Source: a virus (taxonomy: Duplodnaviria; Caudoviricetes). Taken from it: a DNA stretch of 64,000 nucleotides. The translations under genes and the position numbers were made by a program. Position 1 is the stretch's first letter; each line of letters begins with the position of its first letter. Of this stretch, positions 4,033 through 56,340 are shown one piece after another. Under the pieces are notes generated by a model. The model made no database searches. It was not told the DNA's origin and saw nothing but the letters and a program-made list of their open reading frames with translations. The DNA is taken from IMG/VR virus record IMGVR_UViG_3300013426_000014, positions 205,323-269,322 of that record. One strand, written 5' to 3'.

Positions 4033-4141
4033 TATCTGTAATTTTGGATTTTACGAACTTTTTATAATGAATTTTTCATAATTGTTTTTTGGTTTCTCCG
4101 CGGCAGTGACGTCCCGGAGTTTTTTTATTATAAATAATTAT

Positions 4142-4264
4142 ATGAAACGTTTTTATAAAGTACAAGAAGAGTTTGACATGTCGGAGATATCCGACACGGA
4201 CTGCACTGATACGGATATGTCCGTTTTTTGAAAGTATATTGAATTATTGGATTTTATAACTTAA
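4142..4264 (+). CDS. Minimal FD-motif family peptide
   Basis: MKRFYKVQEEFDMSEISDTDCTDT; TATAAATA just upstream; TGA at 4229. Confidence 0.45.
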
Positions 4265-4269
4265 ATACA

Positions 4270-4737
4270 ATGAACCATATTAACGAAGATTTTGATTTGT
4301 CTAATATGTCAGATATAGACTATATTGATATATTTGCTGACATTGATCAGGATGCAGAAATTGTTAATAATTTCACCAATGCATTAAGGCGAGATTTGTA
4401 TCTTACCAATACAGCAATTCCAGATAATTTTGATGTCGGCGGGGTTGATTTAATCAAAATAGATGACGATTGCATCGTTGGGAAGATTTTGACATGGGAC
4501 GCGGAAAAAGTAATGCATCATTTTGGATTATACAGATTGTTTTGTTCGATTATATTATATCCTGGCAAAGACGGGCAGATAGAGTTCAATAGGCGGATAG
4601 GTCTTCCATGACGGATTGTGTCAAAAACCGAAGCATGTAATGTCAGAATCGTTACAAGTAATTTTATGATGACAGACGGCGCGCCATTTTCCGTTGACGG
4701 CGAGGTGACAACCGTGGTCAGGTCGTGATGAAATTAA
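4270..4737 (+). CDS. FD-motif family protein (TGA=Trp)
   Basis: LP*RIVSK aligns to VPWRIKSR of paralog 51181-51651 and similarity continues to TAA. Confidence 0.85.
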
Positions 4738-4797
4738 ATGATAATATATAGGTGTTGCATTGTATTATTAAAAGATAAGCAAATATATAGAAAGTCA

Positions 4798-5862
4798 ATG
4801 AGTAACCAGATTAAAATACAAAAAAATCAATACCTGAACGATTTTTTAGTAACAGAAGATTTTGATTTCAGCGACATGTCAGATGTCGACTACACTGACA
4901 CTTTCAGTGATATGGATCAAGCAGCGGAGGAAATGTTTGATTTCACGGCATGCCTCCGGAAATCCATTCTTATACGCGCACAGACACAAGAGAAGAAAGG
5001 ATTTATCCGTGGTTCAGATCCGGCATTTGACTCGCTTTTCGCCACTGCTGTATCTGGTTCTGCTGCAGACGGATGAAATGTAGATATCAAATCCACATCA
5101 GAAGCAATTCTTCTTAATATATTTGGTGGAACATCTGTGGATAATAATGGTTTCCATACTATTTGTATTGTGCTAGATTTAGCGTCCGCCACTGCATCGT
5201 GAGTGAAAACTGCGCGATGACGTCTATTATCCTCACCAGAATCCAATACACGATATATTTTGTATATCCGCCCTGCCGGACCGGGGACTGGAAAAAGAAA
5301 CGGATCGATGATTGGATCACCGGAATATGTGTTCGGCGATGTCATTGCTGGTGATCCCGTTATTGAGCCGATGGTCGGGCTTAAACCGATAACATTGCGT
5401 ACTTTAATCGGCTCGCCTGTGGAAGTGACCGGAGATTTTATCTGTACTATGGATCCCGCTGGTCCGTTTGTCCCGGGTTTTTTGAACGGAGCGCCGGAAC
5501 GGATCGGTCAAAACTTCGCGGTCCATGTGACTGGAGAAGAACGCATGTCACGTTCCATGACATCATTTTTGTGGGACGGAAAAGGAAATATTATTCCGGC
5601 TTTCACTGATGGTATCAGACGGGTGGTGAAAGGTTTTTTTGTATACCCACCGCATCCTGGCGCCCGTTCTGTGGAACGGCGGAAATCTGAATGTGACCTT
5701 ATTGTGATTGGAACCTCATCATCGCAGCGGAGACTGCCTCCGAGTCTTGTCGGCAAAACGCTTCCGGATATGGAAGTTTCGACCGGTAATGTGGTTGTAT
5801 ACGGTGATCCGGTGGTATGTGTCAAATGATTGGCAAAGGTCAACGGCGTGTACGTTGAATAA
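4798..5862 (+). CDS. FD-motif family LRR-like protein (4 TGA=Trp)
   Basis: TGA at 5074, 5200, 5218 and 5827 all align to W in paralog 51677-52801. Confidence 0.9.
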
Positions 5863-5901
5863 AATTAGACAGAAAGAATAACGGTAGTTAAAAAATATTG
5901 T

Positions 5902-6867
5902 TTGACTGAAGAATTTGATCTGACTGGAATGTCCGAAGTCGACTACACCAACACGTTTTCTGATATTGACGAGAAAGAACAAAAGAAATACACAGAGGAG
6001 TCCATATTGCGCTCGCATATATTGACATGATACGGCGAGTCGACCATACCGGATTTCATCTGGAATGATGAATGCACACATGTCGATTTGAAATTTCCTT
6101 CGCATTGCGATTTCTCGCATGACAATATGAATTTGTATCTTTTTGCTGACGGTGTCGCACTCGCCGAAATTGTCCGAAATAATATCAGTTATACGATTGA
6201 TCCATTGTACCAGATAATCGTCAAATTGACCGCGGCCGGACATGGAGACGGCGGAAATATGATTTATACAGGGAACATGGACATCGATTTGACTGGATGT
6301 CCTGATAAATGTGGAAGGCTTACCATTCAGTTAGATGAGCCGTTTAATACATTTTCTTTCACCGGCTCCCCGCGGGAGGTCGACGGAGATTTTATCGTCC
6401 GTGATATGTGGGCGGACGTCAATGACATGACTGGCGGTCCAGACAGGATCACCGGGTCGTTTTATTGGTATGCAAAGGCGAATATTCCAGGCAGGCTGAA
6501 GTCATTGTTGGGATGCCCGTTCGAAATTATGGGCAATATGTCGGTTGTGAATTCACCGTGCGCTCGATTTCCGTTGAATGCAGGGCATAAAGTAAAAATC
6601 GGTGGATTACTAAATGCCGGCTATCTTTCTCAAGATACGATTCCGGATATGATCAAAAAACGGGGATACACTGTATTGTCAGACGGTGCGGTTTTGGAAA
6701 TGACCACAGGAGGAAAATCTGCTTGATCACACGTAATTAAAGGTGACGACCGTGAACGAGCCGCGCCGGATTTCAAAGTTGATGGAGATATATATTCCGC
6801 CGTATACATCGCATGGAACGATGAGATCGGAGATAAGACTTATATATGGCAGCTGCCGAATTCATAA
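5902..6867 (+). CDS. FD-motif family LRR-like protein (2 TGA=Trp), start uncertain
   Basis: LTEEFDLTGMSEVDYTNTF; TGA at 6028 and 6724; GxP..VxGxF repeats. Confidence 0.8.
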
Positions 6868-13597: not shown

Positions 13598-13868
13598 AAA
13601 TCAGCAACATCAAAATAATTACATAAAAATATGGGATGTATCAATTACGGGACAGCTCCGATTGAGGTCGAGAAGCAGGAACAGGTGAAGTCTGATACCG
13701 AAAACAAAGAGCATCAGAATAACGACGCGGCGGAAGAATCTTAGTTCGGCGCCGGAAGTGAATGATTCAGCGGATCCGTTTTTTACAGGCGGATCCGCGT
13801 TTTTTATTATAAAAATTTCCATATGTGAAAATAAAGCGTTATATTTGTGTTGTTAATTGAATTGGATT

Positions 13869-15368
13869 ATGGTAGAGACAACACATGTAAAAACAAATAT
13901 CGTTATCGGTATGGGATTCGGTGACGAGGGAAAAGGCAGAGTCACCGCATGGCTCGCCGATAAAATGGCGCGGACAACGTCGGCGCCGTACAGAGACAAG
14001 GCGGCGTGTGTCGTCAGGTTTTCCGGCGGGCAGCAGGCGGGACATACCGTCGTGTCGAAACTTGACGGGATGATACCGTACACGTTCGAGTCAGACAAGT
14101 ACAGTCATCAAATCCGTCATGTGTTCTCGACCCTCGGTTCCGGGACGCTTTCGGACTTTAATACGTATGTCTCGAAATACTGCGTGTTCGATCCGCAATG
14201 CGCTGTGAACGAGTTCCGTGCCATCGGGAATGAGATTGAGAACGAGCTGGTCGGAGTCCCGGTCAAGGGTTTTGATATGATCATGCCAGATGACGCCGCT
14301 CATGACATGTGCGGAAAATATTGGATGTATCTTCCGAAATGCGTCATCGACCCCCGCGTCCCGTTGACCACACCGTATGAGGTGTACGCAAACCAACATT
14401 CGGGTGACACCATTTCGGACGGCACGTGCGGGATGGGCGTGTGGGCGACGCGCGTCCGTGAGACGGCGGGTATCTCGATCACCGCCGGCGATATGCGGTA
14501 TCCCGTCGTCTTACGGACCAAACTGAAATCACTCGCCGGCTGGTACCGCAAATCCGGCGTCTTGCCGGCAGATATCGATCTCGAGCTCGACAGATGGCTT
14601 TCCGCCGTCGATTTGATCATCAGGGACAGCAGACATTTTTCAATCGGTCCGCTTCCCGCATGTTCGGACGGATTGATATTCGAAGGGTCACAGGGACTGT
14701 TGCTTGACCAGACGCATGGTTTCGCGCCGAACACGACGCCGTCCGATACCGGACTGTCCAACCTCACCGCGTTCGATAACGATCTTGGTTTCGGTAAACG
14801 TCCGATTAACATGCTCAACGACATATTCTTACGAAACAACGGCGAAGACATGCGCGACATTGTGTTCTCTTCTGACATATATCTCGTCACCCGCGCGTAT
14901 CAGACGCGGCACGGCGCCGGTTTCATGACGAACGAGACGCTGCCGCACAATATCGCGGATGATCCGGACGAGACAAATGTGATGAACGAGTGGCAGAAAG
15001 ATTTCAGAAAATCAATTCTTGACGTCGATCTGCTCAATTACGCGCTCGACCGCCACATGATATGCGAGACGGTGAACGGCACGAAGTCGAGACTTCATCT
15101 CGTTGTGACATGTGTCGATCATGTGCGTGACGCGTTGTGCTTCACTGAGAACGGGAAGATGCGGCAGTTTTCTGACACAGACGAGTTCATCGCGGAAATC
15201 GGATCGGCGCTGTTTGACCACAGGACGATCACCAGTGAGGTAAAGCTGCATTATAGCGATTCGCCGTCCGGCCAGATAAAGGATGCGATGTCGAAACAGG
15301 AATATATGCGCCGTAACTACGTGAGATATGCGAGCACATATGATTCGAATTGCGTCGCGATAGGTTAA
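13869..15368 (+). CDS. Divergent adenylosuccinate synthetase (PurA)-like protein
   Basis: GFGDEGKG, RFSGGQQAGHT, FEGSQG, TRAYQTRHGAG. Confidence 0.88.
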   Translation: MVETTHVKTNIVIGMGFGDEGKGRVTAWLADKMARTTSAPYRDKAACVVRFSGGQQAGHTVVSKLDGMIPYTFESDKYSHQIRHVFSTLGSGTLSDFNTYVSKYCVFDPQCAVNEFRAIGNEIENELVGVPVKGFDMIMPDDAAHDMCGKYWMYLPKCVIDPRVPLTTPYEVYANQHSGDTISDGTCGMGVWATRVRETAGISITAGDMRYPVVLRTKLKSLAGWYRKSGVLPADIDLELDRWLSAVDLIIRDSRHFSIGPLPACSDGLIFEGSQGLLLDQTHGFAPNTTPSDTGLSNLTAFDNDLGFGKRPINMLNDIFLRNNGEDMRDIVFSSDIYLVTRAYQTRHGAGFMTNETLPHNIADDPDETNVMNEWQKDFRKSILDVDLLNYALDRHMICETVNGTKSRLHLVVTCVDHVRDALCFTENGKMRQFSDTDEFIAEIGSALFDHRTITSEVKLHYSDSPSGQIKDAMSKQEYMRRNYVRYASTYDSNCVAIG

Positions 15369-22768: not shown

Positions 22769-23893
22769 ATGATGAACTGATATAATTCTTATAATATTCC
22801 ATTGTCGGAAGGTTTTGACATGTCGAACATGTCGGATTCTGACTATACCGACACATTCGCCGACGCGGACAACAACGCTGTGCGTGACGCTGCGGTGAAC
22901 GCATTTATCGCGGCCTGTGTCGAAGCGAATGACGAATCGGTCAAACTACAGTCCGGTAAATATTGTCTCGCTCAGATACAATTTTGTTCAAACGCAGAAA
23001 AATGAAAGGGATTTGAATATCAAGGTATATTAAGATATCCGTCAGATGATAGGATCGTGAATATCGATGAGGACGGTTTACGTGCGATCACCAGGGCGGA
23101 ATATGATACTGACGGTATTCAGATTATCATTGATCCGGAAAAAGTCGGGCAATTGCCTGGACGGATTTACAGTCTGAGCTTACGCATCGGATCCGGAATT
23201 AAATTTCCTATAGAGTGATCATCGATTTCATTATCCGGCCGTGATGTAGGCAGGAAGTACGCGCTTAAATTGTCTGTGATTCCGTCTTCCGACAGAAAAT
23301 TGTCATGTATGCCGAAACGGGTTGTCGGTAATTTCATACTTTTGGCGTCAGAAGGTCCGGTCGGACTGTATAGACATCCGATGAAATCATACGATGGATG
23401 CCCGGAATATGTTGCAGGTAATTGCACAATCGAATATGGGGCATGATGTAAGGATCCATTCCCACGTGATTTTACAGGATGTCCAAAATATGTCGGCGGT
23501 AATTTTACGGTATTGCTGAATCCATATAATGGCGCGGACTCGTTTCATAAAACGTTCGAGTCCGGCACTGGACTGCCTATTGAAATCGGAGGTCATGCAG
23601 ATCTTCAATACATACGGGATCTTGTTAAAAGGTCAAAGAATGGCGGGCTGATATCTTTATGTCCAGATGGGATGCGAAGGAGTTGAAAGTCATGCACATT
23701 GTTCATACCGTATAATAATTATTATGAAGTCCGTACAAACGGAAAATACAAGGGCGTTCCTATTGACGATAAGGTCGCGGGTAAAAAGCTTAACATAGAT
23801 GACGGCAAAATCAGTATATTGCTTGATGACATCAATATATCAGATAAAGCATGGATTGTTTATTTCACTCCCGGATTATCAAGAAAGCGTTAA
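22769..23893 (+). CDS. FD-motif family LRR-like protein (5 TGA=Trp)
   Basis: Single frame interrupted only by TGA; LSEGFDMSNMSDSDYTDTF; GCP.YV.GN repeats. Confidence 0.85.
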
Positions 23894-23903
23894 TAAATTG
23901 ATT

Positions 23904-25280
23904 ATGAAACTATATAACATTAAATCTGGATTGAATTTATCAAATCAAAGGATAACTGAGGATTTTGATCTGTCCAGAGAAGATGACGCAGACTGAACCG
24001 ACGCCATGTCGGACTCCGATGATGAAGCGATGGAGTTTTATACGTTTGTCACGACATTAAGATCTGCTGTACAACTATATGTACAGAACGAGGATGGTAA
24101 AGCTGTATATAAAAAAGGAACGGATCCGTCGCTCGATATATTGTTCAAAACATCTGTGACTGGAACAAACGCGGATGGATATGACGTGCGGTTGTTTTCT
24201 TGTCCGGCTGCTAATCAACTACTTTCGAGTATACATGGCAGAGCCGCTGCCGAAAATATGTATAATACCCACAGTGAACATACTTATATAGTAAGAGCAC
24301 GGCAGGTGCTGATCTGTCTGGATCTTTCCGCCCTGCCGGCGAATTTTCCGGTATGACGTCTTCCTCGACAGAAGGTTGATGGTTTCAATGTCATGCATAT
24401 GTTATATGTAATACCGTCTGCAGACGGCTCTTTACGTGGGATGCCGGAATTTATTGCCGGTAATGTATATATAGGCAAAGAGGAAGAAGAGAAAGAGGAA
24501 GAAGTTGGACCATTGGAAAAAGAGATATTATGACCAATGGATGCATCAGTGCGTCCAGTTCGGTCGATGACAGGATCGCCGCAAATAGTTGAAGGCAATT
24601 TCCGGGCGGTTATTATATGTCCTGATTCCAGTATGGTATCGTCTGATATTCTGAACGGATCACCGAAATGGGTTACTGGAATTTTTAGAATTATAGGGTT
24701 AAACAGGATTGATTGACCGGCATATAACTCATTTCTGTGAGATTCGGACGGTGCCATCCGGCCGGCGTTCACAGATGGTGTAAGCCGGATGTACGGTCAA
24801 ATTTACATAGACATACTGCATCCGGGTGTTGATTCATCAGCAATAGATTTATCAACAATAAAATCAGATGAGCGAACAAAGTGAACAGATTATATAGAGT
24901 TTGAACAATACAGTTATCGTTGTAGACTAACACATATAATGTTTCCTGATACTATTGTATTAGGTTGCATATGACATATTAAAATATATGGAGATCCAGA
25001 TGATACGGCACGATGATTGAAGAAAATCAATATTGATACACGAATTAACGAAGGTTTCGACATGTCGGATATGTCAGATATCGACTATACTGAAACGTTC
25101 GCGGACGCGGATCATGAGGCGCAGATGGTCAATAACTTTCTTAACGCGTTGTCGCACGATATCATTGAACTCGCACCGTTTTCAATGATATATCACAATC
25201 CGGAGTACCGACAGTTTACAGCGAAATCTACCGGAAGGATCAAATCACGTGCCGCCGCGAAAAAGTCGTCAGTATGATAG
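23904..25280 (+). CDS. FD-motif family protein running into a second unit (about 9 TGA)
   Basis: DAD*TDAMSD matches ENDWTDTMSD; SFL*D..PAFTDGVSR matches SFLWD..PAFTDGVSR; TAR*LKKINIDTRINEGFD. Confidence 0.8.
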
Positions 25281-25909
25281 GGCATGCTCGCTACATAGAC
25301 GGCGAGGTCATATATACCATGTCACCGTTACATAATTGAGAAGTGACGGTCGATTTGTCTCGGAACTGCTTGCGTGATTTTGTTTTGAACGGCGGCAGAT
25401 GACGGCGGGAAGCTCCCGATCCGGATCCCGAAGATCAATTTTACCACATGCATGTCATACCCGGACTGGCCGGTGATTTGACAGGATGCCCGGCTTATAC
25501 AGACGCGTATTTCACTGTTGATGATAACGATGGTCGTCTGACATCGCTGTACGGCGCGCCGGAATGAGCGGACCGTGATTTTGAGTACATATATCAAGGT
25601 GATGAGTGACTGGGTAAACATAATTACACCTACATGATGGGTCCTTTGCAGTCGCTTGAATGATCACCTGAATATGTTGGCGGCACATTCTGGATACAGG
25701 GAGCGAATCTGACAGATCTGACTGGCATGCCGGCGAAAGTTACCGGACAGGTGAGAATCAAAGATTCTATGATGCCGGAAATTTACGCGGGATTAAACTG
25801 TGGTGGTGACAGCGTGCCGCCGGAACTGCTGCCTACCGGGCGATGCGCGATAACAGTAAGGAATCCGTGCGACATGGGAGCACCGTTCAGGATATGGTCG
25901 TCAATTTAA
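25274..25909 (+). CDS. C-terminal LRR-like part of an FD-motif unit, -1 frame (5 TGA)
   Basis: LTGCP, SLYGAPE, LTGMP repeats; only TGA interruptions. Confidence 0.7.
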
Positions 25910-25938
25910 TAGGATAAAACAATTTAATAGGATAAAAC
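25903..25938. repeat. 18-bp direct tandem repeat x2
   Basis: AATTTAATAGGATAAAAC twice. Confidence 0.9.
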
Positions 25939-25954
25939 AAATAATAAAGACTAT

Positions 25955-26923
25955 ATGTTGTCATTAAACGAAGATTTTGACTTTACCGATATGTCGGATA
26001 CCGATTACACAAATACATTCGCCGATATCGATGAATCCGCGGAAAAAGAAAAGGCTTTACAGGATGCGTTCTGAACAGATTATGTGCCATGCTACCGTGA
26101 TTATCCGTCTGTGACAGTGATATGTAAGAGCAAAAATGATATTCCGGAATTATCCGTCACAATAGTGGACAATCCGTATTGAAATCCTGCTATTATTCTG
26201 GATTTGGCGCGTGGCGGATTTGCCGGTTTCATTAAAAAATATGGTGATTATATTATTCGCGGCGGCAAATCCGGATCTATAGCAGGTACGGTATCACGTC
26301 TATTATTACAATTCATCCCGACATCAGACTTTAACCTTATCGGAGCACCGGTAGAGACAATCGGGTTGAATGTTTGTATCGGCAAGAATGACCGTACTAC
26401 TGGCCCGGCTCTCCAAAAATATGATCCCCGCGTCGCAATTCGTTCATATCAGCTGAACTCATTAGACGGATGCCCGCGCCGGATTACCCGCGGAAATTTC
26501 AATATCACCAATTGTCCAAATCTAAATTCGTTAAAAGGATCGCCGGAACACATCGATTATAATATGTCTGTTCGTAAATGTGGAGGGGAACGCATAAAAA
26601 ATTTAGACGGTATGCCAGAATATATCGGCGGAACATTTTATTCAATTAAATCTATACAGCCGGTCGGGCATGATCCAGACACAGGTGAATGACGGCGGCT
26701 GCTGACAACTGGAACAGTGCAAGTCGGTGGTATCACCATATTGAATACCATACCGGCGGAGCCGAGCTACGACATCACATCTAATGACGCAAAAAATCCG
26801 AAAAGCAAAGCAGGTAAGGTATACAAAATGGTAACAGCTGGAATCACCAGTCATACCGGCGCGGATATTGTCAAAGGATCTGTTGAAGTTGACACATCAA
26901 TTCCGATCAATGAGATAAGATAA
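25955..26923 (+). CDS. FD-motif family LRR-like protein (3 TGA=Trp)
   Basis: MLSLNEDFDFTDMSDTDYTNTF; joins ORFs 26204 and 26717. Confidence 0.85.
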
Positions 26924-38125: not shown

Positions 38126-38665
38126 TTATAAAGAATCCTTTATAAATTTATATGTGATATCAATCCATTTATTTTTATCCGGTGTCAAAAAAATCTCATG
38201 ATTGGTGGGATGAAAATCGTTACCGTGCAATTTCATATACATACGTTGGTTTCCGCCCGGCGATCCCAATGGACCGCGCTCTTTGATCCACGGACCGATT
38301 TTTAGGTAGTCGAGCGAATCATATGACAATACAGACCCGTCTGATCCCGCAGTGGGCGGCGCGACGGATCCGCTGTACCAACATGTTTTTACCGTGTTGA
38401 AATTATCGTGGACGAATCTCGCTTTCGCCAGCACGTCATCAGGCTCCGCGTCGCCGCCCATGAACGCGATACACGACACACCCGGTGTATTGTGTATCAT
38501 CCGGTCAAGGATATTAAATGTCAACATCTCACCAGCGTTCCTGTCCCGCATCCATGGACTGTGACAGCCGGGACATGTATAAGGACAACCGGTGAGATTC
38601 ACGCACAGCGTTATCTCATCCGGCACCTCCTCGAATGTTACACGTGTCTCCGCGTATCTAATCAT
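38126..38665 (-). CDS. nrdG: Anaerobic ribonucleotide reductase activating enzyme
   Basis: Radical SAM CPYTCPGC; adjacent to nrdD. Confidence 0.93.
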   Translation of the reverse strand: MIRYAETRVTFEEVPDEITLCVNLTGCPYTCPGCHSPWMRDRNAGEMLTFNILDRMIHNTPGVSCIAFMGGDAEPDDVLAKARFVHDNFNTVKTCWYSGSVAPPTAGSDGSVLSYDSLDYLKIGPWIKERGPLGSPGGNQRMYMKLHGNDFHPTNHEIFLTPDKNKWIDITYKFIKDSL

Positions 38666-40868
38666 CGGATTTTCCTCCGTCTTTTACCGCGTTCGCCTTG
38701 TCCGAATAGACACGGCGTTCGGCTTCTTTATACCGTTCAGAATCAAATGATTTTATCGGTCGTAGAAAACCAATCACCCGTGTCCACCATGACACATGTT
38801 CACTTCCACACTTAGGACAGACCGTGAACTTTGATTTCGATATATAGCCACAATCATCACAGCTCGAGTTGATGACGTTGAACGTATAATAACTCGTGCC
38901 ATTCTTGATCGCGAAATCCATCAATTTCGTGTATTGCGCTTCCGAAAGGTGATCAGCGAGATTGCAGTGCAGGCCGACACCGCCGTCGAGCAGTCCGGTG
39001 AACTCCCTGCCGTGCAGACGGAACCTGTCAAGTACGCTCGTCTCAGGATCATCCGCGAGATAAAAATACGAGTTGTACAGGTTGCGGTTATCCGGGACCC
39101 AATATCCGTCTGCCTTATCCCACTTGTAGTTTTTGCTTGAAAGTCCTTCCGCCGGAACGAATTCAGTATTGAACAGATAATCTTTCTTTCCGTGTATCTT
39201 GTTCTGCTCGCTGATCACGCCTGTAATCAGCTGGCAAAGATGCTTGTAATCGTCATTGTACGAGCATTTGAGTCCGAGAAATTCCGCCGCCTCGTTGATG
39301 CCGTTAAGCCCGATGGTCGAATACAGCTTGTTCATTTTGATGTAACCGGCGGTCGACGCGTTGAGCATGCCGGCGTTCTCGACGTCATAAAGCAACGACT
39401 TATACGCGATCTGGTATTTGTAAACACGTTCCAAAATCGAAATCAGATAATCAGCGAATGACTTGTCGAACGCGGACCAGTCGATTTTTCCCGCCGGCCT
39501 GCCTCCATCTTTCTTGTGATACCCGGTCATATCCGCCCAATTCTGGACGATGCGAGAAAGATTGAGCGTCATGACGTTCGCCGATCCCGTCTGCACGCCG
39601 GTCAGGCCATTGGTGAAGCTGAATGTGTTCTCGTTGATTTTGTTCTGCAGTCGGCAGCATGATGACAACGAATTTGGGTTATCTGATATATATGTGAAGA
39701 AACTGTGACCCTTCGCGTACATCTTGTTCGTGAACGCCTTATAATCCTTGTCGATTATATCATTCCCGTCGGAAAGCAACGCCATCGTCTCAACCGGGAA
39801 CGTGAGCATCGTCTTTGTCCGTTCCTTGTTGAACCACTCCATGAAATCACGCTGCAGGAAATCGACGCGTTCCCATACAGGTTTCGAACCGTCAGGAAAC
39901 AGGAAATCGTCGAACAACGCGTGCCAGTAATTACTGTCATAATATGATATGTTTGTGAACGGGCTCTGATATGACCTGTTCCCCGCCGGCTGGTTCCACC
40001 CGTACACTATCTGCTGATACGCCTGGTGGATCATCTGAATGACTGTCTTTTTCGGACGGACAGACACGACATCAGAACCGCGGAGGTGATAATCATCGCC
40101 GAAATCGTGCGCACAGAAATAATCAAGGAAATTGAAGAACTCGCCGAATGCGACAGCGCCTTTACACTGTGACGACAGCAGGAACGTCAGGTTAACAAGC
40201 TGACCACAGAAAGAGTTGAGATTTTTCGGCGCTGTCGTGCCGAGACCGTCCATCCCCTTGGTGCCGTCAACGAGCAATGGATAAAGCGTGACGGCCTCGC
40301 AGTAATTCTTACACGCAGGAGTTGAACTCTCATCATGTTCATACACAATATGTTGCGCCAAATCTTGTTCATATTGCCGCGCGACTTCTGGAAAATCCTG
40401 TTCCAATCTTTTTCGCATGCGGTAACGCTGAATTTTCCTGTTCATTGTCTTGTACACCTCGCCGTCGAGATTCGCGACATTCTTGATCTGCATGTTCGCA
40501 TTCGGATCCGTCTCCGACGCGGTTGACGCGTTCGTCGACGAGTCGGCGTACTGATCCATATAGTCGATCCGATCCTTGATAAATCTCATCTCCTTGTGTG
40601 ACTCCCTATATATGATATACGCCTTCGCTACCTCATACGGGGCGGCGTCGACAAGTATCCGCTCGACCGCGTCCTGTACGTCTTCGACACCGACCGTCTC
40701 TGGACCGCCGTCCCCGCCGAATTTATCCCGGACCGACGACATTATGTCGTCCTTCCATGAATCGAACTCAATACCCTGCTCGTCGAACGCGGCCTTCACC
40801 GCGGTGATGATTTTGTCGAAATCAAACGGCTCGACCTTGCCGTTTCTTTTCTTTACATGTAACGTCAT
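38658..40868 (-). CDS. nrdD: Anaerobic ribonucleoside-triphosphate reductase with ATP cone
   Basis: VKKRNG ATP cone; SCCRL; CxxC..CPKCG; TRVIGFL glycyl loop. Confidence 0.97.
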   Translation of the reverse strand: MTLHVKKRNGKVEPFDFDKIITAVKAAFDEQGIEFDSWKDDIMSSVRDKFGGDGGPETVGVEDVQDAVERILVDAAPYEVAKAYIIYRESHKEMRFIKDRIDYMDQYADSSTNASTASETDPNANMQIKNVANLDGEVYKTMNRKIQRYRMRKRLEQDFPEVARQYEQDLAQHIVYEHDESSTPACKNYCEAVTLYPLLVDGTKGMDGLGTTAPKNLNSFCGQLVNLTFLLSSQCKGAVAFGEFFNFLDYFCAHDFGDDYHLRGSDVVSVRPKKTVIQMIHQAYQQIVYGWNQPAGNRSYQSPFTNISYYDSNYWHALFDDFLFPDGSKPVWERVDFLQRDFMEWFNKERTKTMLTFPVETMALLSDGNDIIDKDYKAFTNKMYAKGHSFFTYISDNPNSLSSCCRLQNKINENTFSFTNGLTGVQTGSANVMTLNLSRIVQNWADMTGYHKKDGGRPAGKIDWSAFDKSFADYLISILERVYKYQIAYKSLLYDVENAGMLNASTAGYIKMNKLYSTIGLNGINEAAEFLGLKCSYNDDYKHLCQLITGVISEQNKIHGKKDYLFNTEFVPAEGLSSKNYKWDKADGYWVPDNRNLYNSYFYLADDPETSVLDRFRLHGREFTGLLDGGVGLHCNLADHLSEAQYTKLMDFAIKNGTSYYTFNVINSSCDDCGYISKSKFTVCPKCGSEHVSWWTRVIGFLRPIKSFDSERYKEAERRVYSDKANAVKDGGKSDD

Positions 40869-44608: not shown

Positions 44609-45034
44609 TTATATGAACATCATCCCGCCATGCTGTATTATAGTTTGCCGCATCTTGTCGTTGTCTTTCACGATGAACAGATTGTTGGCTTTGACGGCCG
44701 GACTTATGTTATATCCGGTTTTACACATGCACCGGACGCACATTCCAGGATACATCACTGACTTGCACATGCCGATGATCCGCCGGCCGCGGCCAACCGC
44801 CGCGGCGATTATCCCGCGGGGCGCCGGCCGCTCCGCGGAGCAGTACGGATATGAGTTATGCATCCAGCCAGTGTCACACCACACCGGAAAACAGTAGTCG
44901 ACGCCATTGCATCGGTCAAACAATATATAATGTTTGCGATCATCCGATTTCATGACGTCATAAATTACTTTGAGATCATGATCTGTCGGTATCTCTTTTG
45001 TCTTCTTCACCATGATATCACCATTAAATTTCAC
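44609..45034 (-). CDS. PxWC-family protein
   Basis: PVWC...YPYC...CVRCMCKTGYN. Confidence 0.7.
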   Translation of the reverse strand: MKFNGDIMVKKTKEIPTDHDLKVIYDVMKSDDRKHYILFDRCNGVDYCFPVWCDTGWMHNSYPYCSAERPAPRGIIAAAVGRGRRIIGMCKSVMYPGMCVRCMCKTGYNISPAVKANNLFIVKDNDKMRQTIIQHGGMMFI

Positions 45035-45494
45035 CGCTCCGCATCCTTCTCCACGGGAAAACGGTCATGTTGAAATGATCGCTCCATGGTTTCGTCCGCC
45101 GCATGTATTCGACAAGCCCGCACAAAGTGATAGATCCTTCGCGGACCATCGTCCTGTTCCATTTACACATGTCGTGCAGCATGTCGGCGGCGTGCATACT
45201 GTGCCGCGACCTGTACCACCTACAGAACCTGCACCGGCCGGTCCGTCTCGCCGAGCCGGGCGTCATGTTCTCCATCTTGAACGGCGAACATTTCGAGTCA
45301 CCGTACTCGTCCGACTCCGCGCGCGGCGCGCACCATTCCGGACGCAGGACCATTGCGTCCGTGTACGGATCGGTGTCAACCACGACCCGCGCGCCGGCGG
45401 CGTTCCTGCCTTTTATCCCGGTCATGACGATGTCACCGGGTTTCGGATCAGACCGACGGATGGCCTCCGCGGTTTTCGCGTATATAATTTTCAT
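45024..45494 (-). CDS. PxWC-family protein
   Basis: PEWC...C...CRFC. Confidence 0.7.
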   Translation of the reverse strand: MKIIYAKTAEAIRRSDPKPGDIVMTGIKGRNAAGARVVVDTDPYTDAMVLRPEWCAPRAESDEYGDSKCSPFKMENMTPGSARRTGRCRFCRWYRSRHSMHAADMLHDMCKWNRTMVREGSITLCGLVEYMRRTKPWSDHFNMTVFPWRRMRSGEI

Positions 45495-46054
45495 TACTTT
45501 TCTTTATATGTACACTTCCAAAAACACGCGTTTGGATTCATTTTGCTTTCGGTTTTGCCCATTGTGCACAAGAATTCGTAATCAGCGTTAATCATGTCGC
45601 GCATCCGGTTTATGCCGAGCAAATTTCCCTTTGAACCCCTTGACAGTTTATGCGCGTGCCGTATGATGTTCAGCATATACGCGCCCTTGTATACGCCGCC
45701 GACACACATGACGCAATCCACACATTCCGCGTATCTCGCGTTGTCGTTTATCTTGCAGACATCCGTCCGGCCCATGTCGACCGCCGTGTCGAACGGGGCG
45801 GGCATCGTGTCGCTGAATATCTGCCGGCACCAGCCGTCGGGCGGAACCGCCCCGGAATCGTGAAACCTGTGCGCGCACCATTCAGGGACGTTCCTGTACG
45901 GAGCGAACGACAGCGTATCGTCCCACGCGCATCGCGTGACCGTGCCCATGCCGAGACGCCGCCTCCCCCGTGTGTTTATGTTCACGACGGCCGCTTTCCG
46001 CTCGATCTCGTTCACCGGCAACATGAACAGCGCGTCATCTGATCCCTTCGTCAT
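45494..46054 (-). CDS. PxWC-family protein
   Basis: PEWC...C...RYAECVDC...GGVYKG, as in 20495. Confidence 0.7.
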   Translation of the reverse strand: MTKGSDDALFMLPVNEIERKAAVVNINTRGRRRLGMGTVTRCAWDDTLSFAPYRNVPEWCAHRFHDSGAVPPDGWCRQIFSDTMPAPFDTAVDMGRTDVCKINDNARYAECVDCVMCVGGVYKGAYMLNIIRHAHKLSRGSKGNLLGINRMRDMINADYEFLCTMGKTESKMNPNACFWKCTYKEK

Positions 46055-46668
46055 ACCGCATGGTTTTTGTAAAGTCTCTGTGGTCTCCACGCGTCCCGGG
46101 ATCCGGTCAACGTCTCGTAAAGCACCGTCGGTATGAGTCTCGTGTCACACATATCGCGCCACTTCATACGCTCAAGCGCCGGGCGCGGGATATTCATGTA
46201 AACGTTTATGGCATGAAACATCGACTGGACTATAAGGTTATAGTTTCTTCTGTTGTTCAACGGACAGCGCATGCAGCGCGTGTACCGCACCGGCGCGCGG
46301 TCCTCCAGACATCCGTCGAGATATGAGTAAAGATGCGCCGCCGTCTTTTCCTGACTTCCGGCGCCGGAATTTCCATGCGCCTCCGCCTTGTGATCCGATA
46401 TGAATCTCGACTCGCCCTTAATCGCGCGGCAGACTTGCGGCGCGGAACGCGGCCGTACGGCGTCGCACCATTCCGGGACGGAACGGACCGGCACCATATC
46501 CGAGCTGAACGCAGTGTACCTGTCCAACACGTACGGATTCGTTATCGATCTCGACCTGAATCCGGCGCGGCGCCGTCCGCGGACCGCCGACACGACCGGG
46601 TCGTAACCGTTATACTCGACCCGCTCCGTCATCTGATCCACCGGGCCGTATGTTGTATTATCAATCAT
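46051..46668 (-). CDS. PxWC-family protein
   Basis: PEWC...C...RYTRCMRC...NYN. Confidence 0.7.
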   Translation of the reverse strand: MIDNTTYGPVDQMTERVEYNGYDPVVSAVRGRRRAGFRSRSITNPYVLDRYTAFSSDMVPVRSVPEWCDAVRPRSAPQVCRAIKGESRFISDHKAEAHGNSGAGSQEKTAAHLYSYLDGCLEDRAPVRYTRCMRCPLNNRRNYNLIVQSMFHAINVYMNIPRPALERMKWRDMCDTRLIPTVLYETLTGSRDAWRPQRLYKNHAV

Positions 46669-46727
46669 GCAGCGAATATAGCGATAAAAAACGTAAATTA
46701 AAAGCGGAACGTGAAATTTTTTCGTTC

Positions 46728-47297
46728 CTATATTTTCCTGCCGCGCCGCCACATGGCCGACGAAATAAAATCGACGACATACTCCGGCCACGACACGTCG
46801 CCGTACTTATCACCGGGATCGCGCTCTACACGATACATGTCATATAATGAGCTGTAATGTGACAGCAAATCCCGGACGGACAGGTTGTAGTTCCTGTTCA
46901 GCCCGCATCGCATGCATTTCTCCGATATCCGGGCGGGGATAATCCCGCTGCGGAAAACCGGTTTGAACCCGTCCGCGTACGCGGCGTCGAACGCCATCAT
47001 GCTGCACACGTGCCGCCCGTCGAACGCCGCGTGCAGATGTCCGTAATCCCGGGAGTCGAGCCCGTCCAGCGCCTTGCACCACTCCGGCACCCACGCGCAC
47101 AAACATTTCTCGGCCGGACCCATTATGACCGGAACGGATCCGTAACCCGGCCGGCGCCGTCCCCTGACCCGCCGGATTCTTTCCGCGGCGGCGTCAGGGT
47201 CGGGACATCCGGTCCACATCACGGACCGGACGAACGGGACAGCCGACGCCGCCGTGTCGTTCATGTTCGCGGTGGTGATCCTTTTCAATACTATCAT
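46728..47297 (-). CDS. PxWC-family protein
   Basis: RGRRRPGYGS; PEWC; CMRC..NRNYN. Confidence 0.7.
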   Translation of the reverse strand: MIVLKRITTANMNDTAASAVPFVRSVMWTGCPDPDAAAERIRRVRGRRRPGYGSVPVIMGPAEKCLCAWVPEWCKALDGLDSRDYGHLHAAFDGRHVCSMMAFDAAYADGFKPVFRSGIIPARISEKCMRCGLNRNYNLSVRDLLSHYSSLYDMYRVERDPGDKYGDVSWPEYVVDFISSAMWRRGRKI

Positions 47298-47722
47298 TGC
47301 CCCGTCCTTTTGTTGTTTATTATGTCCATCGCCGTCCTTCTGACCCTGTGGACTTCAATTTCCGCCGCGGCGCGCCTGGCCTTCGCCATCACCGCCGTGT
47401 TATAACCGGATTTCATCGCGCATCCGCAGCAGAACGCAGCATGCAGCCGGACGCTCTCGCACATGTTCGAATTCATGACGAACTTCTGCTCGACGCCGGC
47501 CGGCGGCTCGTGGTGCATGGCATAACCGCCCGCGCCGAGCGCGCGCCATACGTGAATGATCCTGTCGCACCGCCGGCCGGGCGGAGTGAGCGTGTCTTTC
47601 GACGTCAGCTTGCACCAGACAGGCGGCGGGACCGACCCCGGACCATACAGCGCGCCGAAACGGAAACGGACGGCGTCGTCCGTCGTGTATACAGCTGTCG
47701 TATGTTTCTTATTATATCTCAT
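47294..47722 (-). CDS. PxWC-family protein
   Basis: PVWC...C...CCGC..KSGYN. Confidence 0.7.
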   Translation of the reverse strand: MRYNKKHTTAVYTTDDAVRFRFGALYGPGSVPPPVWCKLTSKDTLTPPGRRCDRIIHVWRALGAGGYAMHHEPPAGVEQKFVMNSNMCESVRLHAAFCCGCAMKSGYNTAVMAKARRAAAEIEVHRVRRTAMDIINNKRTGQ

Positions 47723-47734
47723 ATCAAATCAATA

Positions 47735-48124
47735 TCATCGCACAGGCATACCGCGGCGTCCGCGCCGTGCCGCGGCGCGTTCCAAATCCCGCCTTCTGAA
47801 GAACGACATCAGTCCGATGTTATACCCGCGCTTGTACCTGCATACCACGCATGACGACGGGTAAAGCACCATGTCATGCATGCCGCGCATATCCGCCGCG
47901 GCCGCGATTTCGTCCGGGATCCGCCGGTAGGCGGCCGCCGGACAGAACGGATAAGGCGCCGGTGATCCCGCGATGATCCGTCCGCCGTCGCACCACGCCG
48001 GAACCGACGCCGAACCGTTCCACATGTCACACATGTCAGCGCAGACAAAATGCCGCCTCGCGGTGTTTTCCGGCAGGGAACCGTCGAGAAACCCGGCGGT
48101 GATGCTCGTGAACCCGTCAATCAT
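47735..48124 (-). CDS. PxWC-family protein
   Basis: PAWC...YPFC...CVVC.YKRGYN. Confidence 0.7.
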   Translation of the reverse strand: MIDGFTSITAGFLDGSLPENTARRHFVCADMCDMWNGSASVPAWCDGGRIIAGSPAPYPFCPAAAYRRIPDEIAAAADMRGMHDMVLYPSSCVVCRYKRGYNIGLMSFFRRRDLERAAARRGRRGMPVR

Positions 48125-48641
48125 CTGCCGTCAAGTTTTTCGAGATCCTCCACCCGTCGAACAGGAACGGCTCTATCTGCCGCGGCCAATCCGGCACGCC
48201 GTCCGTGAACTTGTCGGCATGCTGGGACCAAAAACGCTCCACTTGCCGGAACCGTCCCCGAAGCTCCATATACCCGCCGACGTTCTTGTACGCGCCGCGG
48301 CAAAAGTCGCAGCCCTTCCGTATACAGTCGGTGTATCTGCATCCGCAGGACGAAGGGTCCAGAGCGGACTCCTTCATAATACAGTCACATGACAAGGCGG
48401 TCCTGCTCCCCATTATCCGGTCCGGGACCGGATCCTGACGGAAGAATAAGCACCATTCTGGAAAATTTCTGTACACGATATCGCCGTCCGCGTCCTGGAC
48501 CGCCCTTGTGCCGGAGCCGTAACCGGGGCGGCGTCTTCCTTTCCGCGCGGTGATCACGCTGATCTTCTTCTCCTTGAGCTGCCGGCGGGCGCGCTCAACA
48601 AGTTCCTCCGCCGGTATCTTGTATTGTGATGTTCCCTCCAT
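48117..48641 (-). CDS. PxWC-family protein
   Basis: KGRRRPGYGS; PEWC; RYTDC...GAYK. Confidence 0.7.
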   Translation of the reverse strand: MEGTSQYKIPAEELVERARRQLKEKKISVITARKGRRRPGYGSGTRAVQDADGDIVYRNFPEWCLFFRQDPVPDRIMGSRTALSCDCIMKESALDPSSCGCRYTDCIRKGCDFCRGAYKNVGGYMELRGRFRQVERFWSQHADKFTDGVPDWPRQIEPFLFDGWRISKNLTADD

Positions 48642-48660
48642 TCTGAAAGTAAATTTACGA

Positions 48661-49167
48661 TTATACAGGTTCCGCGGAACGGACGTGCCGTCTGATGTTA
48701 TACATCCGTCCCACCATATCTCGCACGGAGTCTGTCCCGCCGAAATAATATTTCATATCGGACGCGGTCTTCAGGTTATACAGCCGGCTCGCCTTGCACC
48801 GGAGACAGCCCCTGACAGGGGACGCGCCGGAATTCGGCCGGCCGTCCCCTGACATGCTGTACATATCGTTCTCCGCGGCGATCTCCGGACAGGTGTATAT
48901 GACGGCGCCGTTGTATTCGCGGAGCAGCTGGTCGTCCTTCAACCGGCACCATTCCGGCGTCAGTATCGTCTTGACCCGGACGTACATCCCGCATGGCAGC
49001 GCGGCATTCCGGTCCATCTCGTCATAGCTGAAATACACCGCGTCCGTGATCGCCGTCCGTCTGCCCGGCGCGGTCCTGCCTTTCATCATGGTCAGCTCCG
49101 AGAGCCGTGAGAGCCGCCTGACCGCCTCGCGTTCGGCGTCCCGATTTGTTTCGCATACCGTCGTCAT
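48661..49167 (-). CDS. PxWC-family protein
   Basis: PEWC...C...CLRC...LYN. Confidence 0.7.
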   Translation of the reverse strand: MTTVCETNRDAEREAVRRLSRLSELTMMKGRTAPGRRTAITDAVYFSYDEMDRNAALPCGMYVRVKTILTPEWCRLKDDQLLREYNGAVIYTCPEIAAENDMYSMSGDGRPNSGASPVRGCLRCKASRLYNLKTASDMKYYFGGTDSVRDMVGRMYNIRRHVRSAEPV

Positions 49168-49179
49168 ATAATCCGCATC

Positions 49180-49545
49180 CTAACCCCCGAACTCGACCGG
49201 GTATTTCGCGAACAGCCGCGCCGCGCGCCACCGGACCGACGTGTTGTACCCGTTCCTTTTCTCGCACGACATGCAGCGGATGTACGATCCTTCCGTCGCC
49301 CGCCCGCCCTGCCGCGCGGATGATGTGGTGCCGGCGATCATACGGACGAGCATGTCGCAGTGGAAGCGGACAGGCCAGCCGCCGTCAATGTCGTCAAAGA
49401 ATCGGTCATGACACCACACGGGAAGCCGGCCGTACCGGCACCATCTCTCCTGCAAGCCGACCTTGACCGCCGGGTCGTGATATGTCCGCGTCCTTATGAC
49501 GCGGCCTTCGAATTCATTCATTTCCTTCATGATCATTTTATGCAA
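49180..49545 (-). CDS. PxWC-family protein
   Basis: PVWC...C...CMSC...GYN. Confidence 0.7.
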   Translation of the reverse strand: MHKMIMKEMNEFEGRVIRTRTYHDPAVKVGLQERWCRYGRLPVWCHDRFFDDIDGGWPVRFHCDMLVRMIAGTTSSARQGGRATEGSYIRCMSCEKRNGYNTSVRWRAARLFAKYPVEFGG

Positions 49546-49972
49546 GCCGGCCCGCGGGGATTCCCCGCCGCCATTTCCTTCCGAACATCACCATATCCGC
49601 GCCCGCGGGTTTGAACACGCCCGGCGGCAGGGGTCTGATGAACGCCGAACCCGACGAGCCGAACCCCCTGCCGTAGAAATCCATATCCCACATCCGCCGG
49701 CACGCGACCATGTTATAGACGCTGTAGAACCGGCAGAACTTACACCTGACGCACTGGCGGGGCGTCACGTAACAGAACGCGTCCGTTCCGTTCTCGTCGT
49801 ACAGGGCCATGCAGTCATACACGGGGGCGGAAACACGGTCCGCCGTCACCGGCCGCCCGTTCGAACACCATTCCGGGACCGTGATCGTATTCCCGGCGCC
49901 GGTTCTCATCCGTATGAGTCTCCTTCCCGCCGCCGACCGTCCCGGCTCTCGTATGATCTCAATTATATTCAT
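49538..49972 (-). CDS. PxWC-family protein, first in operon
   Basis: PEWC...C...CVRC; promoter 49977. Confidence 0.7.
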   Translation of the reverse strand: MNIIEIIREPGRSAAGRRLIRMRTGAGNTITVPEWCSNGRPVTADRVSAPVYDCMALYDENGTDAFCYVTPRQCVRCKFCRFYSVYNMVACRRMWDMDFYGRGFGSSGSAFIRPLPPGVFKPAGADMVMFGRKWRRGIPAGRLA

Positions 49973-50053
49973 GACGCAAATATAATAAAATTCCGGGAAA
50001 CATGGAAACGTTTCCCGGGATTTTTTTAGCGTTTGTTTTGCTTCCCCGCCGGT

Positions 50054-51196
50054 TTACCTTACCGTGTTCGCGACTGTCACGGCGCGGAGGACCGCGGCCT
50101 TGTTATACGACATCATCTCGATGATAATCCCCTCCCCGCACGAGCAGTCGTCAGCTATCAATTCGGCCAGCCCGTTATATTTTCCGGACCCCGGCGCGCC
50201 GATGTTCACCATCTCCGTCTGCCGATTCGCGCCACTCGCTCTGTCCTTCGCCACGTCCGGCGACATAAGCGCAATCTGCCCGCCGATCTCGCGCCGGACG
50301 CCGTCGCCGAACAGCGGGACGCATCTGCCGTCGTCATCCCACGGCAGAACACGCGTCCCGCACAGTAACAGGGAATTGCCGATCCGCCGCGGCGCGCCCT
50401 TCGCCGACGTCAATGAGCTGCAACATGAGAAATCGGCGAAGTCGCGGACGACATCCGGCGATCCCGTCAGGTCGTTGACCTCTGTCCGCCATGCGGCGCC
50501 GCCGGCTGACGTATGTGACACGAACCTCGCGACACCGAAGTCGTCACACTCCCGCGGCGCGCCCTCAAACGACCGCAGTGGACGGAATCCGGATTCCGGG
50601 CCGGCCGGATCATAGTAGAATATATAATACGGCTTCTCGCGCGGCGGCGCCGGAACGATCATATAACTCCCGTCCACGTACGACGGCGACCCGACGAGCG
50701 TCCCGTCCGCGCGCGGCATCGCGTACACCCAGAAGCTGCTGCTGTTATGATTTATCCCGTCAGGATAAACCGGGACAATCGCGTACTCGTGTATATTCGC
50801 CGGGATCTTGTCGAGATCCAGTATGACGCCGGTGAAGCCGCCGCGGACCGTGACATACACACAGAACATGTCATCCGTCCTGTCGAACCGTATCCTGTGA
50901 CCGAACATGTTCCCGCGCCGCCGGATTGACGTCGACATGTTACAATCTGAATCAAAATAATAACATACCGCCGGGACGAGCGACCGTTCGAATTCGGCCA
51001 TCTCCACGGCGGCCTGATCCATGTCGCCGAACGTGTCCGTGTAGTCGACGTCGGACATGTCCGAAAAGTCGAACCCCTCGCGTATTGCCGCGCCGACAGA
51101 TGTCCGCGCGTCCGCGTCCCATATGTATGTGTCTGTCATGCGGTCCGCCATGATATTCGTCATGTCCTGTGTTTTGTTTGTTACAGCCGCGGCCAT
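50054..51196 (-). CDS. FD-motif family LRR-like protein
   Basis: IREGFDFSDMSDVDYTDTF; GSP/GAP repeats. Confidence 0.85.
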   Translation of the reverse strand: MAAAVTNKTQDMTNIMADRMTDTYIWDADARTSVGAAIREGFDFSDMSDVDYTDTFGDMDQAAVEMAEFERSLVPAVCYYFDSDCNMSTSIRRRGNMFGHRIRFDRTDDMFCVYVTVRGGFTGVILDLDKIPANIHEYAIVPVYPDGINHNSSSFWVYAMPRADGTLVGSPSYVDGSYMIVPAPPREKPYYIFYYDPAGPESGFRPLRSFEGAPRECDDFGVARFVSHTSAGGAAWRTEVNDLTGSPDVVRDFADFSCCSSLTSAKGAPRRIGNSLLLCGTRVLPWDDDGRCVPLFGDGVRREIGGQIALMSPDVAKDRASGANRQTEMVNIGAPGSGKYNGLAELIADDCSCGEGIIIEMMSYNKAAVLRAVTVANTVR

Positions 51197-51651
51197 TTGA
51201 TCACCTCTTGCACATTTTTTATTCCGTCGACGGAGGACGGCGCGCCTAATGTGTCGTCATAATTTTTCGTGATGATCTTGACGCAAACACAGCCGGACCG
51301 CGATTTTATCCGCCACGGGACGCCGTACTTCTCTGTGAACCGCCTCAGCCCGCCGGCGCCGTCCTTTAGCAGGACACTGCAGTACAGGACCGTGATCCAT
51401 CGGTCCATGGAGAGGACCTTGTCCGCGTCCCACGTCATGATCCGGCCGGCGTCGGGATCGTCGTCCATGCTGATCAGATCCGACGATCCGACGTCGATCC
51501 GGTCCGCCAGCGCCGCGTTCGTGATCCGCATGTCACGCCGGAGCGCGTCCGCGAAAGCCGACACCATCTCCGCGTTCTCGTCAATACTGGAAAATGTATC
51601 AGTGTAGTCGACGTCCGACATGCCGGATAAATCAATTTTCTCGTTTAACAT
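51181..51651 (-). CDS. FD-motif family short protein, paralog of 4270
   Basis: LNEKIDLSGMSDVDYTDTF; ALRRDM.ITN; TWDA.KV. Confidence 0.85.
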   Translation of the reverse strand: MLNEKIDLSGMSDVDYTDTFSSIDENAEMVSAFADALRRDMRITNAALADRIDVGSSDLISMDDDPDAGRIMTWDADKVLSMDRWITVLYCSVLLKDGAGGLRRFTEKYGVPWRIKSRSGCVCVKIITKNYDDTLGAPSSVDGIKNVQEVIKWPRL

Positions 51652-51676
51652 TTATAAAAACCGAATAATTTTAATC

Positions 51677-54640: not shown

Positions 54641-54766
54641 AATAATTTTGTTCTTTTCTTTTTTACCGTTATATAGTAAAAATGAATAACGTAGATATAA
54701 TTATTTAACACGCAAAAAGACGGGCGATTTCATGTCCCGCCCGTCTTTCCTTTCGATGATGCAGTC

Positions 54767-55960: not shown

Positions 55961-56057
55961 TCTTTTCTTCTGGTTAAAAATGTTGAACAAAAATGAAAAC
56001 AAAAATGAAAGGGGCGGGCGGAAAATCCCGCCCTTTCGCAAGGTGATCCGCCGGGCG

Positions 56058-56336: not shown

Positions 56337-56340
56337 ACCG

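Follow-up and report, generated by a model that had tools for sequence, protein, structure and literature searches.

The phage described here very probably uses UGA as a tryptophan codon (NCBI translation table 4) and decodes it with a tRNA-Trp(UCA) whose gene, at positions 1538–1903, is split by an intron. Unless marked as genome coordinates, positions are those of the window, i.e., the whole 64,000-nucleotide stretch of DNA that we analyzed. The window comprises bases 205,323–269,322 and so forms the final 64 kb of an IMG/VR phage record that is 269,322 bp long, linear, and, by CheckV estimate, 87% complete. In the mechanism that we propose, UAA and UAG terminate translation, UGA specifies tryptophan, and the phage tRNA, whose gene carries a 293-nt intron between bases 34 and 35 of the anticodon, would read UGA. 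The intron would be removed by self-splicing, the host TrpRS would presumably charge the tRNA, and the host itself would keep the standard code.

The contig encodes a T4/Lak-type large terminase (TerL), a portal, a major head protein, a tail sheath, and a tail tube, together with DNA polymerase, helicases, an NAD-dependent ligase, and an anaerobic ribonucleotide reductase. Default ARAGORN reports 33 tRNAs. The nearest TerL proteins in the phage collection that we searched are those of Prevotella Lak megaphages, at ~32% identity. Given this gene content and this TerL affinity, the phage is a jumbo myophage, probably with a gut Bacteroidota host. Its giant proteins carry BACON and BspA-type LRR domains; the assignment to a Bacteroidota host draws on the BACON and LRR_5 domains and on the gut-metagenome relatives, and a standard code in that host is suggested by the same domains together with the TGA-free key genes. 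The contig encodes no RF1, RF2, or TrpRS; specifically, PF00472, PF03462, and PF00579 (release factors and TrpRS) were not found on it, and the missing part of this 87%-complete contig could hold other decoders or release factors.

The case for recoding begins with a gene family at 4270–6867. Table 11 breaks this region into four ORFs (4270–4611, 4738–5076, 5260–5829, and 6088–6726), whereas treating TGA as sense yields three complete plus-strand genes, each ending in TAA, which bears out the claim of a preliminary description of this DNA that standard ORF calls fragment the genes. Gene A (4270–4737) encodes 155 amino acids from its ATG and contains in-frame TGAs at 4609, 4726, and 4729. Gene B (4738–5862; 374 amino acids) has them at 5074, 5200, 5218, and 5827, and gene C (5902–6867; 321 amino acids) at 6028 and 6724. 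Our tryptophan reference for gene B is a minus-strand paralog at 51677–52801 that has 66% GC and lacks TGA; the two proteins are 51% identical over 340 amino acids. All four gene B TGAs (codons 113, 155, 161, and 364) lie opposite TGG-encoded tryptophan in this paralog, and the gene A TGA at 4609 lies opposite a TGG tryptophan in the paralog at 51184–51651; the preliminary description had stated both matches to tryptophan. Conservation between gene B and its paralog is equal before and after each TGA and remains even to the C-terminus, and the 374 codons of gene B contain no TAA, TAG, or frameshift. The same pattern had been asserted for TGAs at 23994, 24738, and 60572. It holds at 24738, which faces TGG tryptophan in two paralogs, and at 60572–60574, where a TGA read as sense in the minus-strand family member of the high-GC island (60140–61579) faces tryptophan or TGA in paralogs and TGA in an ortholog. 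It does not hold at 23994, which faces the tyrosine of the family’s conserved N-terminal D-x-D-Y-T-D motif and is an aromatic swap rather than a tryptophan match. Over the paralog alignments, TGA is opposite tryptophan in 12% of columns versus 1% for other residues. Chance is excluded as the source of the TGA/tryptophan alignment.

Genome-wide, jackhmmer identifies about 19 segments bounded by TAA or TAG that contain modules of this family, including a second TGA-rich cluster on the plus strand at 22769–26923 (22769–23893, 23799–25280, 25274–25909, and 25955–26923). Together, the segments hold 76 TGA and 85 TGG codons, a count that takes in some 5′ leader sequence. The family is therefore larger than the preliminary description proposed, and its figure of more than 35 internal TGAs is exceeded. 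Likewise, its observation that TAG is absent from tryptophan columns extends further: neither TAA nor TAG interrupts any family module in the genome, so internal TAA and TAG are nowhere comparable in number to TGA. The paralogs at 4270–6867 are intact genes in which most tryptophan codons are TGA. With respect to their setting, the low-GC family copies lie in surroundings that are otherwise largely without TGA. On the minus strand at 51677–54640, three family modules share one frame of 987 codons, with only TGA between modules. The sole stop between two of these modules, at 52853–52855, is a TGA, so the region may encode a fused protein or may be the single site at which TGA still acts as a terminator. 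At its N-terminus, the family protein bears a conserved acidic motif, and the body that follows is rich in repeats. The AlphaFold2 model of the protein (pLDDT 75.5) has no Foldseek match at E ≤ 0.001, and VIA-align returned only weak matches to β-solenoid or LRR-like folds (Z ≤ 6).

Support for TGA as a sense codon comes from most of the genome rather than from this family only. In a run-on test, we took every stop-to-stop ORF no shorter than 150 codons and counted the codons that follow until the next of the other two stops. After TGA-ending ORFs (n = 179), a median of 140 further codons is free of TAA and TAG; the control medians are 31 codons after TAA and 30.5 after TAG. Re-calling with TGA as sense raises greedy ORF coverage from 0.852 under table 11 to 0.921, compared with 0.869 when TAG and 0.881 when TAA is the codon made sense. 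ORFs of 2,871, 2,834, and 2,628 codons contain 25, 12, and 20 TGAs, respectively, and no TAA or TAG, and in-frame TGAs occur in the essential genes for TerL (4) and the portal (2) and in that for the head-closure protein (5). A set of 205 genes selected by codon score stops at TAA (162) or TAG (43) and contains 241 in-frame TGA and 744 TGG codons; TGA thus makes up 241 of 985 tryptophan codons, or ~24%. The base that follows in-frame TGA is distributed as it is after TGG, and unlike that after true stops. On the minus strand of the window, including the high-GC island at the right end (about 57–66% GC), TAA or TAG closes 24 of the 29 ORFs called with table 11, an excess opposite to that of a GC-rich standard-code genome. 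Collectively, the data support TGA as sense genome-wide, with UAA and UAG as the only terminators and with ambiguity at the single junction at 52853.

That the residue inserted is tryptophan is supported by comparisons with orthologs. When TerL is aligned with a 69%-identical ortholog from another IMG/VR contig, four columns pair TGA with TGG, the TGA lying now in one phage and now in the other, and a fifth pairs TGA with TTT. From gut-metagenome contigs in ENA, orthologs of the high-GC island add six TGA/TGG columns, counted in called frames only, to give at least 10 swap columns in total. Among them is a tryptophan pair written G-TGA-TGG-H in one phage and G-TGG-TGA-H in the other. At well-aligned columns, no other residue recurs opposite TGA. 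Rather than facing random residues, TGA occupies paralog and ortholog columns that are mostly tryptophan and in some cases another aromatic residue. When TerL is compared with the T4 gp17 structure, a TGA falls one column away from a tryptophan. An excess of arginine opposite TGA, which appeared in an ortholog tally over all six frames, proved false and stems from non-coding frames in high-GC DNA. The alignments support the assignment of TGA to tryptophan that was made in the preliminary description.

A decoder for UGA escapes standard searches. Over the whole genome, neither default ARAGORN nor Rfam (at the gathering threshold and at E ≤ 1) finds a tRNA(UCA); both find a tRNA-Trp(CCA), at genome positions 202836–202907, that has an unusual 3-bp D stem and a non-canonical D arm. 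When introns are allowed, ARAGORN calls a tRNA(tca) on the plus strand at 1538–1903, 2.4 kb upstream of 4270–6867, with a 293-nt insert after base 34. Exon 1 (1538–1570) supplies the acceptor stem, the D arm, the 5′ side of the anticodon stem, and C-U-U34. The putative group-I-like intron follows (1571–1863), and exon 2 (1864–1903) supplies C35-A36, the rest of the anticodon arm, the T arm, the acceptor stem, and G73. The UCA anticodon, as the gene reads, would exist only in spliced RNA. At the same locus, default ARAGORN calls a tRNA-Cys(GCA) at 1832–1903, which we reject: it has A33, three G·U acceptor pairs, and G73 instead of U73. The Rfam tRNA model scores only 17 bits on 1850–1902. A low-threshold ARAGORN run made 207 calls, which we judge to be noise; one of them was a (tca) antisense to a gene at genome position 187846.

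Joined, the exons fold from free energy alone into a perfect cloverleaf of 73 nt with a 4-nt variable loop, a G73 discriminator, and Trp-type D and anticodon arms. They match Mycoplasmataceae tRNA-Trp(UCA) at 52–57 of 73 positions and an unsplit metagenome tRNA-Trp(UCA) at 59 of 73. Exon 1 shares with the latter an identical stretch of 26 nt, which runs from the D arm along the anticodon stem and ends at CUU, and the 9 nt that come next in the metagenome tRNA match the start of exon 2. No exact copy of the exons or of the intron was found in viral_contigs, in the phage collection, or elsewhere in the phage’s own genome.

The intron is strongly structured (z = −5.2 against shuffled sequences). 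A large L1 hairpin is accompanied by a guide, UUGGAG, and by helices P2–P9, in the order guide, P2 (with a GAAA loop), P3, P4–P6, P7, the 3′ strand of P3, P8, the 3′ strand of P7, and P9, such that P3 and P7 would form a pseudoknot. Exon CUU pairs with the GAG of the guide, including a U·G pair, and the intron ends in G. Both the guide pairing and the terminal G are kept in all homologs. Across five homologs, the proposed fold leaves 95.3% of cells paired, and both sides have changed in 17 of its 64 pairs; none of 500 shuffles reaches this level of covariation, and slid controls give at most 4. P2, P6a, and P9 covary heavily. In contrast, no change is seen in P4, P6, P7, or the joining regions; for P7, this invariance is consistent with the proposed fold, with no covariation of its own. 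A bulged A beside a G–C pair in P7 resembles what we take to be the canonical G-binding site of the Tetrahymena and Azoarcus introns. Neither a permissive search over 451 nt (E ≤ 10) nor one at the gathering threshold gave a match to the Rfam group I model (RF00028), and for this reason we call the intron group-I-like.

Related phages carry the same locus with and without the intron. The gene just downstream of the tRNA(UCA) gene encodes a widely conserved DUF7873 protein; relatives of this gene in a protein-cluster database gave access to the locus in other phages, and a search for them in viral_contigs found none. Two near-identical relatives (L032 and L033) have, in the same slot, an unsplit 73-nt tRNA(UCA) gene identical to exon 1 plus exon 2. 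Because this intronless allele matches the joined exons, it fixes the splice junction at CTT|CAAAACC. In two others (L030 and L031), these exons flank a longer form of the intron, of 333 nt. In more distant phages, other tRNA(UCA) genes are split at the same position by homologous introns of 210–212 nt, the carriers being a 318-kb contig of 38% GC and a 103.5-kb, CheckV-complete genome of 34% GC. The 103.5-kb phage is itself TGA-recoded: coverage rises from 0.72 to 0.92 with TGA as sense, and a median of 435 open codons follows TGA, as opposed to 11–12 in the controls. The only tRNA(UCA) gene found in this phage is the one split by the homologous intron, and default ARAGORN misses it. Finally, a degenerate pattern of the intron core matches 22 other IMG/VR contigs of 24–179 kb. 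In all 22, the intron-final G directly precedes CAAAACC and a tRNA 3′ half; default ARAGORN calls a tRNA(tca) in none of them, and with introns allowed it calls one in 14, with the intron at position 34. The intronless allele of near-identical phages shows that recoding can do without the intron, which may be merely selfish.

TGA is used unevenly across the genome. Genes differ in their TGA use by more than chance would give (over-dispersion, chi-square p = 3e-8): of the genes with at least four tryptophan codons, 38 lack TGA, as opposed to 19.5 expected. The TGA-free set includes replication and nucleotide genes (DNA polymerase, helicases, ligase, and NrdD) and virion genes (major capsid, sheath, and tube). 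TGA share does not track GC3 (rho = −0.12), and TGA-containing genes are weakly clustered along the genome (runs test z = −1.6). We discarded a simple pattern in which late genes are recoded, because the major head, sheath, and tube genes are also TGA-free. Avoidance of TGA where translation must be early or very efficient fits better. Capsid, sheath, tube, and replication proteins would then be translated before the suppressor is available, or more efficiently than the suppressor allows.

Several other explanations deserve consideration. The low-GC paralogs could be decaying pseudogenes in which mutation has turned TGG into TGA, a codon that would still be a stop, and the 40% GC of the TGA-rich copies, below the 66% of the intact-looking copy, is in keeping with that idea. 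Decay is difficult to reconcile, however, with a 374-codon frame free of TAA, TAG, and frameshifts, with conservation that is equal around each TGA, with the in-frame TGAs in TerL, the portal, and the giant ORFs, and with orthologs that swap TGA and TGG in both directions. The genome-wide run-on test refutes it, and we regard its probability as negligible. RIP- or APOBEC-like hypermutation as a source of the TGAs was also dismissed, there being no accompanying TAG or TAA. Equally far-fetched is the assignment of TGA to another residue, i.e., glycine (code 25), cysteine, or selenocysteine, to which the default ARAGORN label of “SeC” for a tRNA(tca) might seem to point. The aligned residues are tryptophan or the aromatic phenylalanine and tyrosine, glycine and cysteine do not recur at well-aligned columns, and the 73-nt tRNA, with its 4-nt variable loop, G73, and Trp-like body, is unlike the long-arm tRNA-Sec.

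Two further alternatives accept UGA as tryptophan and place the decoder elsewhere. One is that code 4 is the host’s own and the phage mirrors it with no code switch. In favor of this proposal, the sequence context of TGA is that of an ordinary sense codon, and no phage RF1 or TrpRS was found. Nonetheless, it is unlikely: Bacteroidota, which are not known to use code 4, are indicated as hosts by the BACON and BspA-LRR domains and by the gut-metagenome relatives, a GC content of 50–66% is unlike that of known code-4 bacteria such as Mollicutes, TGA-free genes are in excess, and the phage has its own tRNA-Trp(UCA). The other alternative is that the split gene is dead and that a near-cognate tRNA-Trp(CCA), of phage or host, reads UGA in the manner of the Hirsh suppressor. 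The non-canonical D arm of the phage tRNA-Trp(CCA) and the failure of Rfam to recognize the intron lend this some credence. Against it, the exons are identical to the intronless allele, leaky read-through of 25 TGAs in one ORF would leave negligible full-length product, and the intron core is invariant or covarying across phages of 34–49% GC, which indicates selection on a functional RNA. We consider a dead gene very unlikely. Decoding of UGA by the phage’s split tRNA-Trp(UCA) remains the explanation that we favor.

The practical consequence is that table 11 fragments about half of this phage’s genes, and annotation of the phage and its relatives needs table 4. More broadly, both of the main surveys of recoded phages left open how the reassigned stop codon is decoded in the many genomes with no detectable suppressor tRNA. 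The split tRNA(UCA), here and on the 22 other IMG/VR contigs, offers a testable answer for part of that gap, and a simple remedy for missed suppressors is a tRNA search with introns allowed or with an intron model. We speculate, tentatively and with more doubt than confidence, that the intron-split tRNA-Trp(UCA) is the overlooked decoder in a substantial share of the TGA phages reported to lack a suppressor. Because its UCA anticodon would be made only by splicing, that step would then govern the timing or the strength of the cell’s switch to code 4. An adaptive timer of this kind is made less likely by the near-identical phages that have the intronless allele.

Recoding of TGA to tryptophan in phages whose hosts use the standard code has already been described and is not new here: gut phages of the Agate and Jade clades and of crAss-like groups are known to use it (bioRxiv 10.1101/2021.08.26.457843; PMC7886860). 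In only ~35% of code-4 genomes was a suppressor tRNA detectable, and “divergent” non-canonical tRNAs were guessed for the rest (10.1101/2021.08.26.457843; PMC7886860). Analogous to these phages, the present one is a large gut phage with many tRNAs, a phage-borne tRNA(UCA), and in-frame TGA at tryptophan positions, and some of its genes are compatible with the standard code. Unlike in those phages, the suppressor gene is intron-split and invisible to default tRNA finders, there is no RF1 or TrpRS module, and the major capsid, sheath, and tube genes, which are the virion genes with the highest expression, contain no TGA instead of being recoded. The Lak megaphages of Prevotella likewise combine an alternative code with many tRNAs, some of which have “enigmatic introns” with intron-plus and intron-minus alleles among variants (PMC6784885). 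They differ in reassigning TAG to glutamine and encoding RF2, and in having genomes of ~540 kb and 26% GC, compared with the 269-kb contig here; in the sections of that report on which we draw, the introns are described in tRNA-Tyr and tRNA-Thr and not in a suppressor (PMC6784885). In our literature library, which is incomplete, we found no paper describing an intron-split suppressor tRNA, and such a tRNA looks to be new.

Bacterial tRNA genes provide the closest structural parallels. In cyanobacteria, a group I intron interrupts the anticodon loop of tRNA-Leu(UAA). In general outline, the same holds for the Azoarcus pre-tRNA-Ile, which has a group I intron in its anticodon loop (PMC13168695). 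Like these introns, the one proposed here is inserted in the anticodon loop, has a guide-paired U before the 5′ splice site and a final G, and is predicted to share the P3–P9 order, the P3/P7 pseudoknot, the bulged A by a G–C pair in P7, and GNRA tetraloops. Unlike them, it resides in a phage stop-codon suppressor, has a large and variable L1 hairpin, and has no Rfam match. Finally, the spliced tRNA would share with Mycoplasmataceae tRNA-Trp(UCA) the same D-arm and anticodon-arm signature and G73; the Mycoplasmataceae gene, however, is unsplit and serves cells whose whole proteome is written in code 4.

The paralogous family comprises approximately 20 modules genome-wide (genome coordinates denote the whole phage record); those within the window lie at 4082-6867, 22769-26923, 50054-54640, 57430-58626, and 60140-61579. 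Common to the modules is an acidic motif at the N terminus, F-D-F-S-D-M-S-D-x-D-Y-T-D-T-F, behind which G-x-P-x-x-V-x-G repeats follow. This common head could serve as a targeting or packaging signal.

The meaning of one gene boundary in the family depends on the genetic code. Gene A (4270-4737) ends in TGA-TGA-AAT-TAA (window 4726-4737), and the ATG of gene B (4738-5862) follows directly. The standard code makes this terminus a triple stop; with code 4, the protein ends in Trp-Trp-Asn. In the cluster at 22769-26923, an in-frame G_AAA_AAG (window 25259-25265) stands directly ahead of the TAG that ends 23799-25280. A -1 shift at this heptamer would fuse the N-terminal family motif with the repeat body of 25274-25909. 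Either the frameshift is programmed or the gene is broken.

GC content reaches 57-66% in an island at window 45000-62000 and also at genome 1-5000, while the remaining genome is 40-50% GC. The ENA gut-phage contigs L014-L018 are syntenic with this island, and they too carry genes broken by TGA.

The phage group to which the window belongs is rich in mobile elements. NrdD of the relative L016 (11698-15117) is a 1,139-aa protein with intein and LAGLIDADG domains, whereas NrdD in the window (38658-40868) is unsplit, at 736 aa. TerL (genome 72296-74407) has a weak intein-splicing match. At window 13857-15368, a 503-aa protein partially matches adenylosuccinate synthetase (Pfam E = 3e-21); it is a candidate PurZ-like enzyme that could function in producing 2-aminoadenine DNA.

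The phage tRNA-Trp(CCA), at genome 202836-202907, lies 2.4 kb ahead of the window; its D stem has 3 bp and its anticodon stem 6 bp. In phages L046, L055, and L061, ARAGORN, with introns allowed, also reports a tRNA-Leu(tag) with an intron of approximately 790 nt close to the split tRNA(UCA) gene; further tRNAs of these phages may be split too. Many homologous split tRNA(UCA) genes (L039 11214-11272, also L046-L061) contain an extra hairpin in exon 2, at the variable-arm position. This hairpin resembles the CCA-bearing anticodon arm of a tRNA-Trp (loop C-U-C-C-A-A-A). Through it, the tRNA may offer TrpRS the CCA identity element. Unlike these homologs, the window's own split tRNA(UCA) (1538-1903) lacks the extra hairpin.
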